From positions 17,969 to 81,968 of IMG/VR virus record IMGVR_UViG_3300042876_000902: a stretch of 64,000 nucleotides of DNA, one strand, 5' to 3'. How positions within the stretch are numbered: the first letter of the stretch is position 1; every line of letters begins with the position of its first letter. Position numbers and translations under genes: made by a program. This DNA is from a virus. Below, piece after piece: positions 831 to 4,551 of the stretch. The notes below the pieces were generated by a model that did no database searches, was not told where the DNA came from, and saw only the letters and a program-made list of their open reading frames with translations.

Positions 831-1163
831 ATGGGACTCCCGCTATCGCTTCCAGGCACGCTAGATGGGGCGTACAACGGAACGACCACGTCCGCTCCGA
901 CAACGACGTCGTCCGCTCCGGCAACCACGACGTCGGCCGCTCCGGCAACCACGACGTCGGCCGCTCCGGCAACCACGACCACGACGACGTCGGCCGCCCC
1001 ACGAGGCGAGTATGTGCTATCGTACAGAGGGTTCAACGTCCCGGTCCGGCCGGGGTCGGGAGCATTCCAACCAGAGGCGGGGCACGGGTCGGACCTCGTA
1101 GGGCCGGATGACACCAAACCAATCATCGTCGCGACCACGAGAGGTAAGAAGGCGATCACATGA
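831..1163 (+). CDS. Small Thr/Ser/Ala/Pro-rich mucin-like protein
   Basis: ATG 831; tandem TTTS(A/S)APA units; stop overlaps the next ATG (ATGA). Confidence 0.65.
   Translation: MGLPLSLPGTLDGAYNGTTTSAPTTTSSAPATTTSAAPATTTSAAPATTTTTTSAAPRGEYVLSYRGFNVPVRPGSGAFQPEAGHGSDLVGPDDTKPIIVATTRGKKAIT
880..999 (+). repeat. Imperfect ~24-bp tandem repeat encoding TTTSAAPA
   Basis: ccgctccggcaaccacgacgtcgg-like unit repeated about 4 times. Confidence 0.85.
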
Positions 1164-2518
1164 AGCTCACCATCGGGATGGCGTGTTACAAGGACTTCGA
1201 CACGGCATGGTTCACCATCCAGTCGCTCAGGATCAACCAGGACCTGACCGACACGGAGATCCTCGTCGTCGACAACTTCGGTGATGACCGGCTTCAGCGG
1301 TTCGTCGGCAGCTGGACCAACGGTCAGGTGCGGTACGTTCGGTGGACTGACGTGCAAGGGTCCGGCCCGGCGAAGGGGCGTGTCTTCGCGGAGGCGAAGG
1401 GCGCCCACGTCATCTGCATCGATCCGCACATCATCCTGTGGCCAGGGTCCGTGAAGCGGCTCCGTGAGTGGTTCGACGCCAACCCCGGCTTCGACGGGCT
1501 CGTGCACGGCCCGCTGTTCTACGACCAGCTCACCTACGGATGCGACTCACTCAGGGGCGACTTCGGCGGTGACGGCGTGTGGGGAACCTGGCAGGGCTGC
1601 GGCGAGCTTCCGCTCGACGCCGCGCCGTACGCCATCGAGAAGATGGGGATGGGCTGCTTCGGGTGCCGCCGGGACGCGTGGCTCGGGTTCCCGACCCGGT
1701 ACAAGGGCTTCGGCGGTGAGGAGGGCATCATCCACAGGAAGTACGCGAAGGCCGGGCGCAAGGTGATGCTGCTCCCGTTCCTCCGCTGGGTCCACCTCTT
1801 CCGCGACGGGTCGGCGCCGTATCCGGCGCTCCTCGAAGACAAGGTGCGAAACACGGTCATCGGCTTCATGGAAAACGGCGACAGCCTCGAGCCGGTGTTC
1901 AAGCACTTCGGCGACACCGCACGCCGGATCTACCAGGAGCTGTCCACCGGCGCTACCTCCGCGCGGACGGTCGTCAGCACGCCCAGCCAAACGCCTGCGC
2001 AGTCGCTCTACGCGAGGACGGCCGGGACCCCGTCGGACATCAACGAGCACCTGCCGACGCTTGCGCGGCTCGCGACCGGGAAGCGGGTGGTCGAGATGGG
2101 GGTCAGAGGCGGGGCCTCAACGGTTGGGTTCATCCACGGCCGCCCCGCTTCGCTGCTCAGCTACGACCTCCTCCCGACCCCGTCGGAGGCTCAGCTGCGT
2201 GACTTCGCCTCTGCCTCGGCCGTGAAGTGGGAGTTCAGGATCGGCGACTCCCGGCAGGTCGACCCGGGCGAGCACGACGTCCTCTTCATCGACACCTACC
2301 ACGTCGCCGCCCAGCTCCGCGCCGAGCTGGCGAACCTCGTGCCGAAGACGCTGGAGTGCATCGTCCTCCACGACACCGTCACGTTCGGCGAGCGCGGCGA
2401 GGATGGCAGCCCGGGGCTGCTCGTGGCGGTGATGGAACTCATCGGCACCGGGCAGTGGCGGGTGGCGGAGGACTTCCGCAACTGCAACGGTCTGATGGTG
2501 CTCCGCAGGGTGAGCTGA
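1160..2518 (+). CDS. GT2 (GT-A) glycosyltransferase fused to a class I SAM methyltransferase (Methyltransf_24-like)
   Basis: N-terminal LTIGMA..EILVVDN..ICIDPH..GFGGEE; C-terminal VVEMGVRGGAST..DVLFIDTYH..LHDT. Confidence 0.85.
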   Translation: MKLTIGMACYKDFDTAWFTIQSLRINQDLTDTEILVVDNFGDDRLQRFVGSWTNGQVRYVRWTDVQGSGPAKGRVFAEAKGAHVICIDPHIILWPGSVKRLREWFDANPGFDGLVHGPLFYDQLTYGCDSLRGDFGGDGVWGTWQGCGELPLDAAPYAIEKMGMGCFGCRRDAWLGFPTRYKGFGGEEGIIHRKYAKAGRKVMLLPFLRWVHLFRDGSAPYPALLEDKVRNTVIGFMENGDSLEPVFKHFGDTARRIYQELSTGATSARTVVSTPSQTPAQSLYARTAGTPSDINEHLPTLARLATGKRVVEMGVRGGASTVGFIHGRPASLLSYDLLPTPSEAQLRDFASASAVKWEFRIGDSRQVDPGEHDVLFIDTYHVAAQLRAELANLVPKTLECIVLHDTVTFGERGEDGSPGLLVAVMELIGTGQWRVAEDFRNCNGLMVLRRVS

Positions 2519-2529
2519 GGGAGGCGGCC

Positions 2530-4551
2530 GTGCTCTACGATTGCTTCACGTTCTTCAATGAGGTCGAGCTGCTCGAGATCCGGCTGCGCTCGCTCCGCGA
2601 CGTCGTCGACCGGTTCGTCATCTGTGAGTCGCTCCACACACACTCCGGTCTTCCGAAGCCGCTGACCTTCCCGACGCTCGCGGAGAAGTACAAGGACTAC
2701 CCGATCACGCACCTCGTCTTCCCGGGCGACCCGCGGGCCGGGCCGTGGGACAATGAGCACGGGCAGCGGAACCACATGACGAGAGCGCTCGGCGAGTGCA
2801 GGTCCGACGACCTGATCCTGCTGTCGGACATCGACGAGCTGCCGAACCCCGCTGCGCTCGGCGACCTCGGCGACGCGGAGGTTGGTGCACTCGAGATGGA
2901 CCTCTGCTACTACTTCATCAACTGCCAGTTCCCACAGAAGTGGTACCACGCCAAGCTGTTCCGCCACCGCGCGATCGGGTCGCGGACGCTCACCGAGATG
3001 AGGTTCTCCGAGGCAAAGCTCATCAAGAACGGCGGGACCCACTTCTCCTACCTCGGCGGTGCCGAGCGGATCAGGACGAAGCTGCTGTCGTTCGCCCACC
3101 AAGAGTTCAACTCGCCGAAGTTCACCGACACGGAGAACATCGAGAGGCGGGTCGGGGCGAGCCGCGACCTCTTCGACCGCGGGGCGGACCTCGTCGTGCA
3201 TGACCTGGTCGAGGCCCCGTACTACGTCCCGCGCAGCGTGCTCGACGAGCCGGACCGGTACCGCGGCCTGATCCGCACCCCGCCGATGAAGCACTTCTAC
3301 CAGAGCATCCAAGGCTGGTTCACGTTCCCCGCCTTCTACCGCTCGATGGTCGAGCGGGCGCCGCAGGAGGGCGCACGCTTCGTCGAGGTCGGTTCGTGGA
3401 AGGGCACGTCGGCCGCGTACCTCGCCGTCGAGGTGGTGAACAGCGGAAAGCCGATCGAGGTGACGTGTGTCGACACGTGGAATGGGTCGGAGGAGCACGC
3501 CGGGTTCGACACCTCCCGCCTCTACGACGAGTTCATCGAGAACATGAAGCCGGTGAAGGATGTCGTGAAGGCGGTACGCGGGGCGTCGGTCGACGTCGCC
3601 ACCACCTTCGATGACGGGTCACTCGACTTGGTCTTCATCGACGCGGCTCACGACCATGACTCCGTGAAGGCTGACATCGAGGCGTGGCTGCCGAAGGTCA
3701 AGACGGGCGGGACACTCGCCGGTCATGACCACTCCCACCCTCCCGTTGGCCGGGCCGTGGCTGAGCTGCTGCCCGCGGCGGCGTCGGCGGGCGAGGACGT
3801 CTGGTGCTACCTGAAGCCGGGGCGGCAGCCGTTCGTCTCGTGCATCTGCCCGACCTACAACCGGGTCGGCGGCGACTACCAGTGGCTCATCGAGGAGTGC
3901 GTCGAGGCGTTCCTGCGCCAGACCTACCCGGAGGCGCTCCGCGAGCTGATCATCCTCAACGACCACCCCGGGCAGACGATCGTCTGCGACGCGCCGGGGG
4001 TCCGCGTCATCAACCACCCGCAGCGGTTCCCCACCCTCGGAGAGAAGTACAACCACGCGATCGAGCGCGCTCGTGGCGAGGTCATCCTCTCGTGGGAGGA
4101 CGACGACATCAGCCTCCCGAGGCGCATCGCGGATTCGGTGGACCGGCTCGACGAGGGGTACGACTACTGGAACCCGCAAGGCTCGTGGTTCATGGACGGT
4201 CACGGGGCGCTCCACAAGACCCACCCGCAGGGCGTCAACCACAACGCGTCGGCGTTCACCAAGAAGGCGTGGCGGGAGGTCGGAGGGTACGCGCGGGTGT
4301 CTGGCCCGCAGGACGCGATGATGGATTCGGCGCTCAAGGCCAAGGTGAGGACGTCGCCCGTTCACCTGACTGAGCCGAGGAGGTGGAGCTTCATCTATCG
4401 GTTCGGCGTCTCCAACCTCCACCTCTCCGCGTTCGCCGACACGCAGCGCGTGTACGATGAGTACGTGCGCAGGGCGACCGTGCACGGTCGCTTCGTCCTC
4501 GCTCCCAAGTGGCGGCGAGACTACGCTGCGCTCGCCGCTTCGATGTCCTGA
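2530..4551 (+). CDS. Three-domain protein: GT17-like GlcNAc transferase + SAM methyltransferase + GT2
   Basis: GTG 2530 after GGGAGG; YDCFTFFNEVELLEIRL..SDIDE..HFSYLGG (GT17); FVEVGSWKGTS..FIDAAH..GHD (MTase); VSCICPTYNR..WEDDD (GT2). Confidence 0.85.
   Translation: MLYDCFTFFNEVELLEIRLRSLRDVVDRFVICESLHTHSGLPKPLTFPTLAEKYKDYPITHLVFPGDPRAGPWDNEHGQRNHMTRALGECRSDDLILLSDIDELPNPAALGDLGDAEVGALEMDLCYYFINCQFPQKWYHAKLFRHRAIGSRTLTEMRFSEAKLIKNGGTHFSYLGGAERIRTKLLSFAHQEFNSPKFTDTENIERRVGASRDLFDRGADLVVHDLVEAPYYVPRSVLDEPDRYRGLIRTPPMKHFYQSIQGWFTFPAFYRSMVERAPQEGARFVEVGSWKGTSAAYLAVEVVNSGKPIEVTCVDTWNGSEEHAGFDTSRLYDEFIENMKPVKDVVKAVRGASVDVATTFDDGSLDLVFIDAAHDHDSVKADIEAWLPKVKTGGTLAGHDHSHPPVGRAVAELLPAAASAGEDVWCYLKPGRQPFVSCICPTYNRVGGDYQWLIEECVEAFLRQTYPEALRELIILNDHPGQTIVCDAPGVRVINHPQRFPTLGEKYNHAIERARGEVILSWEDDDISLPRRIADSVDRLDEGYDYWNPQGSWFMDGHGALHKTHPQGVNHNASAFTKKAWREVGGYARVSGPQDAMMDSALKAKVRTSPVHLTEPRRWSFIYRFGVSNLHLSAFADTQRVYDEYVRRATVHGRFVLAPKWRRDYAALAASMS

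Follow-up and report, generated by a model that had tools for sequence, protein, structure and literature searches.

A predicted cytoplasmic O-glycosylation cassette in the tail module of an uncultured soil phage

The window analysed here, a 64,000-nt stretch of IMG/VR record IMGVR_UViG_3300042876_000902 (positions 17,969 to 81,968), comes from an uncultured soil phage that encodes two multi-domain glycosyltransferase (GT) and methyltransferase (MT) enzymes within its tail genes (Table 1). The open reading frame (ORF) at the 5' edge of the window matches Pfam Beta_helix (3.5e-8), and the full-length protein has both a pectate-lyase-like family match and a PHROG tail spike match. The 3' side is occupied by RcGTA-type distal tail genes, including two DUF2460 genes, a gp84-like hub, an NlpC/P60 gene and a 1292-aa host-specificity protein. 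All elements of the glycosylation cassette described in an earlier, sequence-only reading are present at or near the positions first given for them: a mucin-like ORF with TTTSAAPA repeats, coupled through an ATGA overlap to a GT2-MT fusion, and then a triple fusion. The start of the triple fusion, previously placed at 2227, is replaced by the downstream GTG codon, from which the predicted product is identical to the database gene call. All five catalytic domains of the two enzymes are present with intact metal-binding motifs, and no hydrophobic segment in the cassette is long enough to span a membrane (maximum KD over 19 residues, 1.14).

Table 1. Features of the tail-module cassette and of the RmlB-like gene, in window coordinates.
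Feature	Coordinates	Strand	Evidence or remark
Beta-helix tail spike gene, 3' part	3..812	+	Full gene at genome 17470-18780, 436 aa; start precedes window
110-aa Thr-rich ORF, candidate small acceptor protein	831..1163	+	Directly upstream of GT2a-MT
24-nt tandem repeat, TTTSAAPA units	881..979	+	Tandem Repeats Finder: period 24, 3.2-4.4 copies, 89-98% matches
GT2-methyltransferase gene (gene 1)	1160-2518	+	452 aa
GT2a domain, residues 1-267 of gene 1; predicted initiating polypeptide O-glycosyltransferase	1160..1960	+	Pfam GT2 1.7e-9
Gene 1 methyltransferase domain, residues 277-452; predicted sugar O-methyltransferase	1988..2518	+	Pfam MT24 3e-3; AlphaFold model
GT17-MT24-GT2 triple fusion (gene 2)	2530-4551	+	GTG start at 2530 after GAGGGAGG; 673 aa
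GT17 domain, residues 1-250 of gene 2; predicted accessory elongating/branching GT	2530..3280	+	Pfam Glyco_transf_17 3.3e-23
MT24 methyltransferase domain, residues ~255-430 of gene 2	3290..3820	+	Pfam Methyltransf_24 1.6e-21
GT2b domain, residues 434-673 of gene 2; predicted glycan-elongating GT	3829..4551	+	Pfam GT2 2.3e-12
RmlB-like NDP-hexose 4,6-dehydratase	56073..57176	-	Best family TIGR01181, 257 bits; Pfam Epimerase and GDP_Man_Dehyd

Conserved motifs and structural modelling indicate that GT2a is a homologue of the mucin-type polypeptide GalNAc-transferases of animals and protists (CAZy GT27), whose substrates are Thr/Ser/Pro-rich mucin tracts. Only ppGalNAc-transferases occupied VIA-align ranks 1-29 for the AlphaFold model (pLDDT 86; Z 19.5-23.7; top match Z 23.7, rmsd 3.2, 252 residues aligned), with a moderate margin for the GT27 assignment because GT-A folds resemble one another and the first non-GT27 match followed at Z 19.2. 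The sole significant matches of the GT2a family profile in the PDB were likewise GalNAc-T7 and GalNAc-T10 (E 1e-4), with which the DxH (DSH) and Gal/GalNAc-T WGGE...GH motifs align; D88, H90 and H212 are invariant in the family. Compared with GT27 enzymes, such as human GalNAc-T2 (2FFU, 6NQT), T7 (6IWQ) and T10 (2D7I), GT2a shares only 15-18% identity and lacks the membrane anchor, the secretory-pathway location and the ricin-type lectin domain, in whose place it carries a methyltransferase.

This gene 1 methyltransferase domain scores below the Pfam Methyltransf_24 cut-off, but we consider it real because a full-length homologue of gene 1 at another phage locus, L102 (36% identity, E 3e-99), itself matches MT24 and because the model of the domain matches O-methyltransferases, including 8c9v (Z 17.1) and Mycobacterium hassiacum MeT1 (6g80; Z 16.9, 21% identity). 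The domain thus resembles, at the level of predicted structure, sugar O-methyltransferases. MeT1 is the 1-O-methyltransferase of methylmannose polysaccharide (6G80; PMC9883506) and methylates a sugar hydroxyl; in its polysaccharide pathway it works as a stand-alone enzyme, whereas the phage domains are fused to GTs. In gene 2, the MT24 domain matches MeT1-type 6g7d weakly in sequence, and the GT17 domain (82.8 bits against a 26-bit cut-off) retains a D100-I-D-E motif; two-domain GT17-MT24 proteins are known from elsewhere. The W-x-DDD motif of GT2b is invariant across 15 homologues, and the best folds for its AlphaFold model (pLDDT 84) were Leptospira GT 6p61, the WrtF fucosyltransferase, heparosan and chondroitin synthases, and TarS/TarP. 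In contrast to GT2a, GT2b resembles, in its model, enzymes with sugar acceptors.

The 110-aa ORF immediately upstream of gene 1 is preceded by an SD-like AGGA 4 nt 5' of its ATG and was also predicted by the gene caller of the protein collection (P0056). Its repeat is also a breakpoint of metagenome contigs from four runs. Among 5.8e9 and 1.84e9 proteins the ORF matched only itself, and because it is an orphan, its role in the virion is that of a candidate only. An unlikely reading, though one that deserves some weight, is that the ORF is untranslated, either as an intergenic repeat remnant or as a former C-terminal spike extension cut by the in-frame TGA at 810-812, in which case the only acceptors would be the other Thr-tract proteins. 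Besides the lack of homologues, this would fit an ORF that shares the spike frame, begins 18 nt past the spike stop and has a GC3 of only 0.71-0.72, against about 0.91 in the neighbouring GT genes. However, the spike itself has a GC3 of 0.76, near the ORF value and unlike the GT genes, and the ORF composition matches that of spike and fibre. GC3 in the non-repeat half is highest in the ORF's own frame (0.72, versus 0.61 and 0.53), the SD-like site and the ATGA coupling exist, and an untranslated ORF would leave a 350-nt non-coding gap inside a compact late operon. At three other loci (L130, L131 and L246), poly-Thr ORFs of small size (169-172 aa, and up to 220 aa) also overlap or abut the GT start.

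Elsewhere in the genome, more substantial candidate acceptors than the 110-aa ORF lie outside 831-4551. A 723-aa lectin-domain fibre encoded just upstream of the window has two Thr tracts of ~75 aa each, the tail tube carries an 8-residue Thr insert, and a 100-aa fibre-like protein ends in a poly-Thr tail before which its PHROG relatives stop. Strict poly-Thr tracts occur in only four genes of this genome, all + strand genes of the virion module. The closest relative, G001, is complete and syntenic (terminase 62% and tube 63% identity); it has no GT2 domain, no MT24 domain and no poly-Thr tracts, its tube is without the insert, and the gene for the 100-aa fibre-like protein is absent. This within-lineage contrast involves one relative only, yet the confinement of tracts to four virion-module genes here and their absence from a syntenic genome indicate a pattern beyond chance.

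Comparative genomics indicates that the conserved core of the cassette is GT2a-MT plus GT2b, and not GT17. Relatives of the GT17 domain in 68 viral loci showed no co-occurrence with Thr-rich ORFs, and the family, best known as eukaryotic MGAT3, is a common, not an exotic, one in phages. By contrast, a survey of synteny was positive for the GT2 pair. Of the 29 long metagenome loci, 14 carried a poly-Thr ORF, whereas 2 did so among 67 controls (Fisher p = 2.7e-7), and the count for loci from the genome collection was 29 of 67; such ORFs shared the GT strand in 54 of 61 cases, with a density maximum within 5 kb. In 18/20 IMG/VR loci with both GTs, no more than 100 nt separate the GT genes from the end of a poly-Thr ORF upstream, and the 110-aa ORF occupies this position here. 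About 17 metagenomic proteins are GT2a-GT2b fusions (37-46% identity to GT2a, 44-54% to GT2b). Neither GT2a-MT nor GT2b had sequence relatives in 50,697 deposited phage genomes, and we found no published description of the enzyme pair in the literature searched.

The neighbours of the pair also bear on where the candidate acceptors reside. Metagenomic siphophages share the order head closure, terminator, major tail, tape measure, poly-Thr protein, GT2a(-MT24) and GT2b, and the poly-Thr proteins next to phage GTs are large (470-1300 aa) and follow the tape measure at the tail-tip position; at L102, a 702-aa poly-Thr tail protein precedes the GT2a-MT24 gene. The GT pair also adjoins poly-Thr proteins in cells, namely in genomes of Chloroflexota and Planctomycetota. 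Cellular homologues of the pair lie next to small poly-Thr proteins that are rich in Cys and carry Tat-like leaders, and these are exported rather than virion proteins. These cellular loci, together with the orphan status of the 110-aa product and its lack of a recognisable structural domain, could suggest that this product, and perhaps others, is glycosylated but non-structural or secreted, acting in the infected cell as a decoy, assembly helper or exclusion factor. We regard this as improbable given the tail-tip neighbours in phages, the location of the remaining tracts in tube, fibre and fibre-like protein, and a 110-aa product in which neither a signal peptide nor a hydrophobic segment was found.

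Slightly less probable still is a glycan destined for host LPS, capsule or EPS, or for a free methylated oligosaccharide, with the Thr tracts serving as flexible linkers. Thr-rich linkers do occur without glycosylation, GT2b, GT17 and the MeT1-like methyltransferases look like polysaccharide-pathway enzymes, and roughly half the long GT2b loci had no poly-Thr ORF inside their flanks. This would nevertheless leave unexplained both the near-obligate same-strand poly-Thr adjacency (18/20 loci) and the GT27-type motifs of GT2a, and the cassette has neither membrane segments nor lipid-carrier enzymes. It is also embedded in the late tail operon, where the + strand of positions 1-7000 showed neither promoter-like nor terminator-like sites; seroconversion GTs are generally membrane-bound and expressed in lysogeny. 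The competing model of the sequence-only reading, in which the cassette glycosylates (and methylates) a modified base of phage DNA, is very unlikely. The phage does encode nucleotide-metabolism genes and a C5 cytosine methylase, and PHROGs labels MT24 relatives as 'DNA methyltransferase', but at least ~20 kb separate the cassette from the nucleotide genes, GT2a carries polypeptide-GalNAc-transferase motifs, and the pair adjoins poly-Thr proteins in cellular genomes as well. In the systems covered by PMC13326640, moreover, DNA GTs are GT-B-like and adjoin hydroxylase and kinase genes outside tail modules.

The synteny of the GT2 pair and the homology of GT2a to ppGalNAc-transferases therefore support protein O-glycosylation, and the cassette probably directs the O-glycosylation, in the cytoplasm, of Thr tracts carried by virion proteins. 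The earlier interpretation is thus supported, by comparative genomics and structure prediction, for the modification of mucin-like Thr tracts, and is unsupported in its RmlB link and its self-containment. The 56073-57176 product is RmlB-like rather than proven RmlB since it scores below the 365-bit cut-off of TIGR01181 (dTDP-glucose 4,6-dehydratase), and G001, without GT2 or MT24 domains, also encodes a TviC-like NDP-sugar SDR. Among the few ORFs annotated outside the tail module, none was identified as a further gene of a sugar-nucleotide pathway.

Several known systems offer partial parallels. Phage GTs glycosylate capsid and tail-tube subunits of mycobacteriophages Che8, Corndog and Myrna (Freeman et al. 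2023, Cell Host Microbe, as relayed in PMC12619734, PMC11256854 and PMC10877033). As far as these accounts go, the likeness lies in the use of the phage's own GTs and, here, in candidate tracts on virion proteins, the tail tube among them; the differences are the long internal poly-Thr tracts and linkers plus a C-terminal tail as candidate acceptors, and predicted five-domain fusion enzymes including two methyltransferases. Isolated relatives of the present phage also infect Proteobacteria, not mycobacteria, and its GT2a-MT and GT2b stand apart from deposited phage genomes. By description, chlorovirus PBCV-1 A064R, a GT-GT-methyltransferase that O-methylates a terminal sugar (PMC7826918), and A111/114R, with three GT domains, are likewise virus-encoded soluble multi-domain enzymes that extend a virion-protein glycan, but in a eukaryotic giant virus, on N-linked glycans of the major capsid protein, and with other domain orders and families. 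The serine-rich-repeat adhesins of Gram-positive bacteria are modified by cytoplasmic GtfA/GtfB and accessory GTs. They resemble the present case, by description, in having dedicated GTs beside a long Ser/Thr-repeat protein and modification before export or assembly, and differ in being cellular, with a GT-B (GT4) initiator and export via accessory Sec.

Taken together, we propose that genes 1 and 2 encode a late-expressed soluble machine that would decorate the phage's own virion poly-Thr tracts before or during assembly. GT2a would attach the first sugar to Thr, the glycan would be lengthened or branched by GT2b and the accessory GT17 domain, and the two MeT1-like methyltransferase domains would O-methylate its sugars, with the 723-aa fibre, the tail-tube Thr insert, the tail of the 100-aa fibre-like protein and the 110-aa ORF as likely acceptors. 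The analysis shows the domain identities, the homology in fold and motifs, the synteny and the co-occurrence; from these we infer sugar attachment, sugar identity and step order, as well as any benefit, which may include protection from proteases or desiccation, shielding or adhesion; a methyl-capped glycan acting as a shield or adhesin would be one such outcome. Many uncultured phages have this enzyme pair directly after a Thr-rich tail protein, and are therefore predicted, very probably, to sugar-coat their own particles.

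The virus record is 81,968 bp long (G+C about 66%), without a near relative among 50,697 deposited phages or a near-identical phage in INPHARED. Given that its terminase, tail tube and host-specificity protein share 23-49% identity with those of Brucella, Marinobacter, Brevundimonas, Acinetobacter and Pseudomonas phages, the virus is a siphophage whose isolated relatives infect Proteobacteria. Four rhizosphere metagenome DNA runs carry the stretch almost unchanged and therefore offer no variation for testing coding constraint, and no RNA run carrying it was listed among the sequencing runs searched. 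The contigs of these four runs end inside the 24-nt repeat, at 942-950, and all four have T at window 3235 in place of A; the difference falls on the opening base of codon 236 in the triple fusion of gene 2 and would change the residue. No promoter-like or terminator-like site was found on the + strand in window 1-7000, which is weak evidence, consistent with co-transcription of the glycosyltransferase (GT) cassette and the tail genes. Just downstream, two neighbouring genes each match only about the first 80 positions of DUF2460 and look like a tandem duplication of the short form; in the closest relative phage genome, G001, the first copy runs on within a stop-free frame of about 2158 codons.

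Features of the phage and of related loci (window = bases 17969-81968 of the record; genome = whole record, L069)
Feature	Coordinates	Strand	Remarks
100-aa fibre-like protein	genome 2828-3130		terminase-portal gap
Tail tube	genome 10527-11300
Tape measure	genome 11930-15268
723-aa protein	genome 15284-17455		after tape measure
Beta-helix spike	genome 17470-18780 (window 3-812)
110-aa Thr-rich ORF	window 831-1163
24-nt tandem repeat (TTTSAAPA)	window 881-979		98% matches
Gene 1 (GT2a-MT)	window 1160-2518
Gene 2 (GT17-MT24-GT2b)	window 2530-4551
GT17 domain of gene 2	window 2530-3280
Short DUF2460 genes	window 4509-5003, 5005-5358
RcGTA-type distal tail	downstream of gene 2		two DUF2460 genes, gp84-like hub, NlpC/P60, 1292-aa host-specificity protein
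C5 cytosine DNA methylase	window 44751-45953	-
DUF3854/DUF5906 primase-helicase-like protein	window 52129-54489	-
Rv2179c-like 3'-5' exoribonuclease	window 55268-55975	-	adjoins RmlB-like gene
RmlB-like gene	window 56073-57176	-
Cys-rich poly-Thr tail proteins of other phages	L102:5132-7240, L109:6153-7991, L117:3284-6739, L136:3401-5710, L241:2743-6378		44-133 Cys
724-aa ORF with intein	L109:11974-14148		downstream of GT genes

Gene 1 had been read as a GT2-methyltransferase fusion, and this is confirmed, with Pfam assigning the GT2a domain at window 1160-1960 to the general PF00535 only. The AlphaFold model (pLDDT 86) predicts a GT-A catalytic domain nearest to the ppGalNAc-transferases, which start mucin-type O-glycosylation. 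These enzymes hold ranks 1-29 in VIA-align, with Z 19.5-23.7, rmsd about 3 Å (3.2 Å) and 240-255 aligned residues (252), followed by chondroitin polymerase as the next family (Z 19.2, 204 residues), and they occupy about the top 44 ranks in Foldseek (24 entries listed). When a sub-domain profile of the central GT2a region (A4) was searched against the whole PDB, GalNAc-T7 (E 1.1e-4) and GalNAc-T10 (E 2.6e-4) were the only matches with E < 1; a whole-length profile (A3) returned generic GT2 N-terminal matches, and GalNAc-T7 at only E 0.06. In the A4 alignment, lDsH falls on LDSH of GalNAc-T10 and fGGEelyIhekyrqaG...WvHrf falls on WGGENFEISYKIWQCGG...VGHIY of GalNAc-T7. The DxH and the Gal/GalNAc-T motif (WGGE...CGG...GH) of GT2a thus lie at equivalent positions, its FGGEE...H block on WGGEN...GH, and the residues equivalent to the family invariants D88, H90, G185-E188 and H212 bind Mn2+ in GT27. 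GT2a is not a canonical GT27 member, since gene 1 has neither a C-terminal ricin-type lectin domain nor a type II membrane anchor: it shares fold and motifs with the ppGalNAc-transferases but carries a methyltransferase fold (residues 277-452) where they have the lectin domain. No membrane or hydrophobic segment was found in the protein of gene 1 or of gene 2. As modelled, GT2a is a distant prokaryotic or viral relative of the GT27 catalytic domain.

In gene 2, the order GT17-MT24-GT2 proposed by the sequence-only reading stands, although the start does not and is a GTG at 2530. The GT17 domain (CAZy GT17/Pfam PF04724, 82.8 bits against a 26-bit cut-off, profile positions 75-299 of 348) has an SDIDE motif, and hence a DxD, at residue 100; beta-1,4-GlcNAc activity is typical of MGAT3. 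Both methyltransferases are class I SAM-dependent domains of PF13578 (cut-off 26.3 bits). The one in gene 2 scores 77.6 bits, and the one in gene 1, weak in Pfam at 18.7 bits, has a homologue in the uncultured phage locus L102 that reaches 30.6 bits and a model close to O-methyltransferase 8c9v (Z 17.1) and to M. hassiacum MeT1 (Z 16.9), a sugar 1-O-methyltransferase (PMC9883506). Both domains are predicted to be MeT1-like sugar O-methyltransferases. The fold of GT2b (model pLDDT 84) resembles Leptospira GT 6p61, the WrtF fucosyltransferase, heparosan/chondroitin synthases and TarS/TarP, all enzymes that act on sugar acceptors, which suggests a division of labour in which GT2a would put the first sugar on protein and GT2b would lengthen the glycan; the sugars would carry methyl groups. 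In about 17 metagenomic proteins the two domains form a single chain (N-terminal 250 residues 37-46% identical to GT2a, C-terminal 235 residues 44-54% identical to GT2b), so genes 1 and 2 each supply one half of a conserved working pair. The GT17-MT24 part has been added by fusion ahead of GT2b: the exact triple fusion is unique among the proteins searched and its pieces recur, in two-domain GT17-MT24 proteins and in permuted GT2-MT24-GT17-GT2 fusions. The RmlB gene that had been tied to the cassette is present as an RmlB-like ORF for which TIGR01181 (dTDP-glucose 4,6-dehydratase) ranks first, far ahead of GalE and others, but its 257 bits lie beneath the 365-bit equivalog cut-off. Its membership in the cassette is not supported: G001 has an NDP-sugar SDR of another type and no GT2 or MT24 domain.

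The co-occurrence of these genes with threonine-rich ORFs was surveyed using a threshold of at least 8 Thr in 12 residues to define poly-Thr ORFs. Among the long (at least 6 kb) GT2b metagenome loci, 29 of 80, such ORFs were found in 14, against 2/67 in the control (Fisher p = 2.7e-7), and in species-representative genomes they were found in 29 of the 67 long loci (74 in total), mainly from Chloroflexota and Planctomycetota with some Rubrobacteraceae. Most (54/61) lay on the GT strand, and their density peaked 1-5 kb upstream and 1-3 kb downstream, dropping about five-fold past 6 kb. The control consisted of 68 IMG/VR loci (1.2 Mb) that encode GT17 relatives of about 30% identity, only 2 of which included a poly-Thr ORF, and GT17 was rejected as the anchor of the system. 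The proposed link between GT17-MT-GT2 fusions and Thr-rich ORFs therefore holds for the GT2a/GT2b pair and fails for GT17. Single-sequence IMG/VR scans with GT2a-MT and GT2b were too specific, and loci were recovered by an alignment-based scan: 37 include GT2b, and 20 of these also GT2a, mostly with a methyltransferase of the gene 1 type. A poly-Thr ORF ends at most 100 nt upstream of the GT genes in 18 of the 20 loci with both GTs, a set in which the L244 and L245 rows are identical and L231 and L102 are one contig. This adjacency is indirect evidence for the predicted transfer, by GT2a, of a sugar from a UDP-sugar to Thr/Ser of a polypeptide.

Several of the metagenome loci are siphophage tail modules that run from head closure through terminator, major tail and tape measure to a protein of about 330 aa, followed by a poly-Thr/Cys-rich protein of 600-1150 aa, GT2a(-MT24), in some cases a separate MT24, and finally GT2b. 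Gene 1 is a full-length homologue of the L102 GT2a-MT24 gene (36% identity, E 3e-99), and given the canonical succession of poly-Thr protein, GT2a-MT and GT2b, the 110-aa ORF sits in the acceptor position. No homology was found among the acceptor poly-Thr proteins, or between them and the Thr proteins of this phage; judged from these comparisons, the conserved element of the putative acceptors is the tract and not the protein. Neither GT2a-MT (tblastn, E ≤ 1e-3, 50,697 phage records) nor GT2b had relatives in deposited phages, and the triple fusion was matched there only by MT and GT17 segments of cyanophages and huge phages. Glycosylation of DNA rather than protein, raised earlier as the competing model, is contradicted by the cellular homologues adjoining poly-Thr proteins, by the GT27 motifs in GT2a, and by the different arrangement known for DNA glycosyltransferase genes (PMC13326640), and we consider it highly improbable.

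The poly-Thr neighbours themselves fall into several kinds. On cellular metagenome or MAG contigs from Chloroflexota, Rubrobacteraceae and others (L081, L083, L087, L157, L161, L163, L164, L177, L205), a GT2a-GT2b fusion adjoins small poly-Thr proteins, many of them Cys-rich, with a common N-terminal leader RFDxLxxxLA...SRRxALxxL. This leader looks like a twin-arginine signal, which would suggest cytoplasmic glycosylation before Tat export. Other cellular neighbours (L191, L197, L207, L208) have a conserved N-terminal domain, VGDGLGVFD...YVLNATSALVFQHCDGQTTPQQL, which looks PqqD/RRE-like, followed by a hydrophobic stretch and a Thr tract. Five phage poly-Thr tail proteins are extremely Cys-rich, show patterns that recur, such as CDCN ahead of a Thr run, and have no family in Pfam or PHROGs. 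The intein in the 724-aa ORF of one of these phages carries a LAGLIDADG homing endonuclease.

Only four genes of this phage encode strict poly-Thr tracts, and every one of them belongs to the virion module. The 723-aa protein is the largest candidate acceptor; two Thr tracts, each about 75 aa long (TTTTTAGP... and AAPTTSTTSTT...), separate its two similar lectin-like domains, which weakly match 3-keto-disaccharide-hydrolase/DUF1080-type domains. The tail tube contains APTTTTTTSSGSP, and the 100-aa fibre-like protein ends in TTTTTTSTTTTSTTTTTSTTTTTSGG, a 26-residue poly-Thr/Ser tail beyond the point (about residue 74) at which its PHROG relatives stop. The fourth is the 110-aa ORF, whose TTTSAAPA repeats and coupling to the GT2-methyltransferase gene were correctly recognized, its stop overlapping the start of gene 1 (ATGA). 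An SD-like AGGA precedes it, and GC3 in its non-repeat half is highest in its own frame; we consider it unlikely, independently of the other alternatives, that it is not translated. Its GC3 (0.71) resembles that of the spike (0.76), unlike the GT genes (0.91), and since the 723-aa protein is similar (0.77), these three may share an arrival. No homologues of the ORF were found, two extra HMMER matches being low-complexity Thr linkers, and an origin by recent copying from the fibre or tube tracts was rejected, the matches being short and composition-driven. The ORF also shares the reading frame of the spike (window 810-833), starting 18 nt past the spike TGA, a coincidence with a chance of one in three; readthrough of this TGA, which is seen in contigs of three rhizosphere runs, would add a 116-aa poly-Thr C-terminal extension.

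G001, the only relative found in tail-tube scans, provides a contrast. Its genome is complete at 58.8 kb and syntenic with that of this phage, and its terminase, portal, capsid and tube are 50-63% identical. G001 lacks any poly-Thr tract: its tube, 63% identical, has VVPSPS-GP where this phage has a Thr run 8 residues longer, the gene for the 100-aa protein is absent, and the slot from tape measure to DUF2460 holds other genes. In this single comparison, four independent features vary together with the cassette.

Taken together, we consider it probable that the cassette carries out cytoplasmic O-glycosylation of Thr tracts on virion proteins with methylated sugars. That the 110-aa ORF has a role outside the virion seems improbable, and attachment of the glycan to something other than a phage protein marginally more so. 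More tentatively, and with somewhat less than even confidence, GT2a-MT and GT2b may represent a widespread, undescribed "mucin-type" O-glycosylation system of prokaryotes and phages, in which a soluble ppGalNAc-transferase relative would start glycans on poly-Thr tracts in the cytoplasm, the acceptor being a tail-tip protein in many uncultured siphophages, or small Cys-rich Tat-exported proteins in Chloroflexota, Planctomycetota and Rubrobacteraceae. To our knowledge, virion glycosylation has been shown experimentally only in a few mycobacteriophages. For mycobacteriophage capsids and tail tubes it is cited in PMC12619734 and PMC10877033. This phage is uncultured, from rhizosphere metagenomes, and has candidate acceptor tracts; no homology to the glycosyltransferase genes of Che8, Corndog or Myrna emerged, GT2a-MT having no match in the tblastn search of deposited phages. 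Chlorovirus A064R is comparable in architecture and role: this GT-GT-methyltransferase lengthens a capsid glycan and caps it with methyl (PMC7826918). Literature searches (poly-Thr, GT27, threonine-rich with phage glycosyltransferase) returned no description of the module: virion glycosylation is known, and the pair of enzymes with its affinity to GT27, its form with five domains and its synteny with poly-Thr tail proteins are new.

If the broader reading is true, the GT27 catalytic domain has a deep bacterial or viral branch. The finding would tie the enzyme that begins mucin glycosylation in animals to a relative among prokaryotes and viruses. The two soluble enzymes, together with short repeat peptides (TTTSAAPA), might also serve to produce mucin-like glycopeptides in bacteria. 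For the phages themselves, dozens of uncultured representatives from soil and water share a conserved three-part module of poly-Thr tail protein, GT2a-methyltransferase and GT2b, and if these virions are sugar-coated, this would matter for how they adsorb, how stable the particles are in soil, and how antibodies and defences recognize them.
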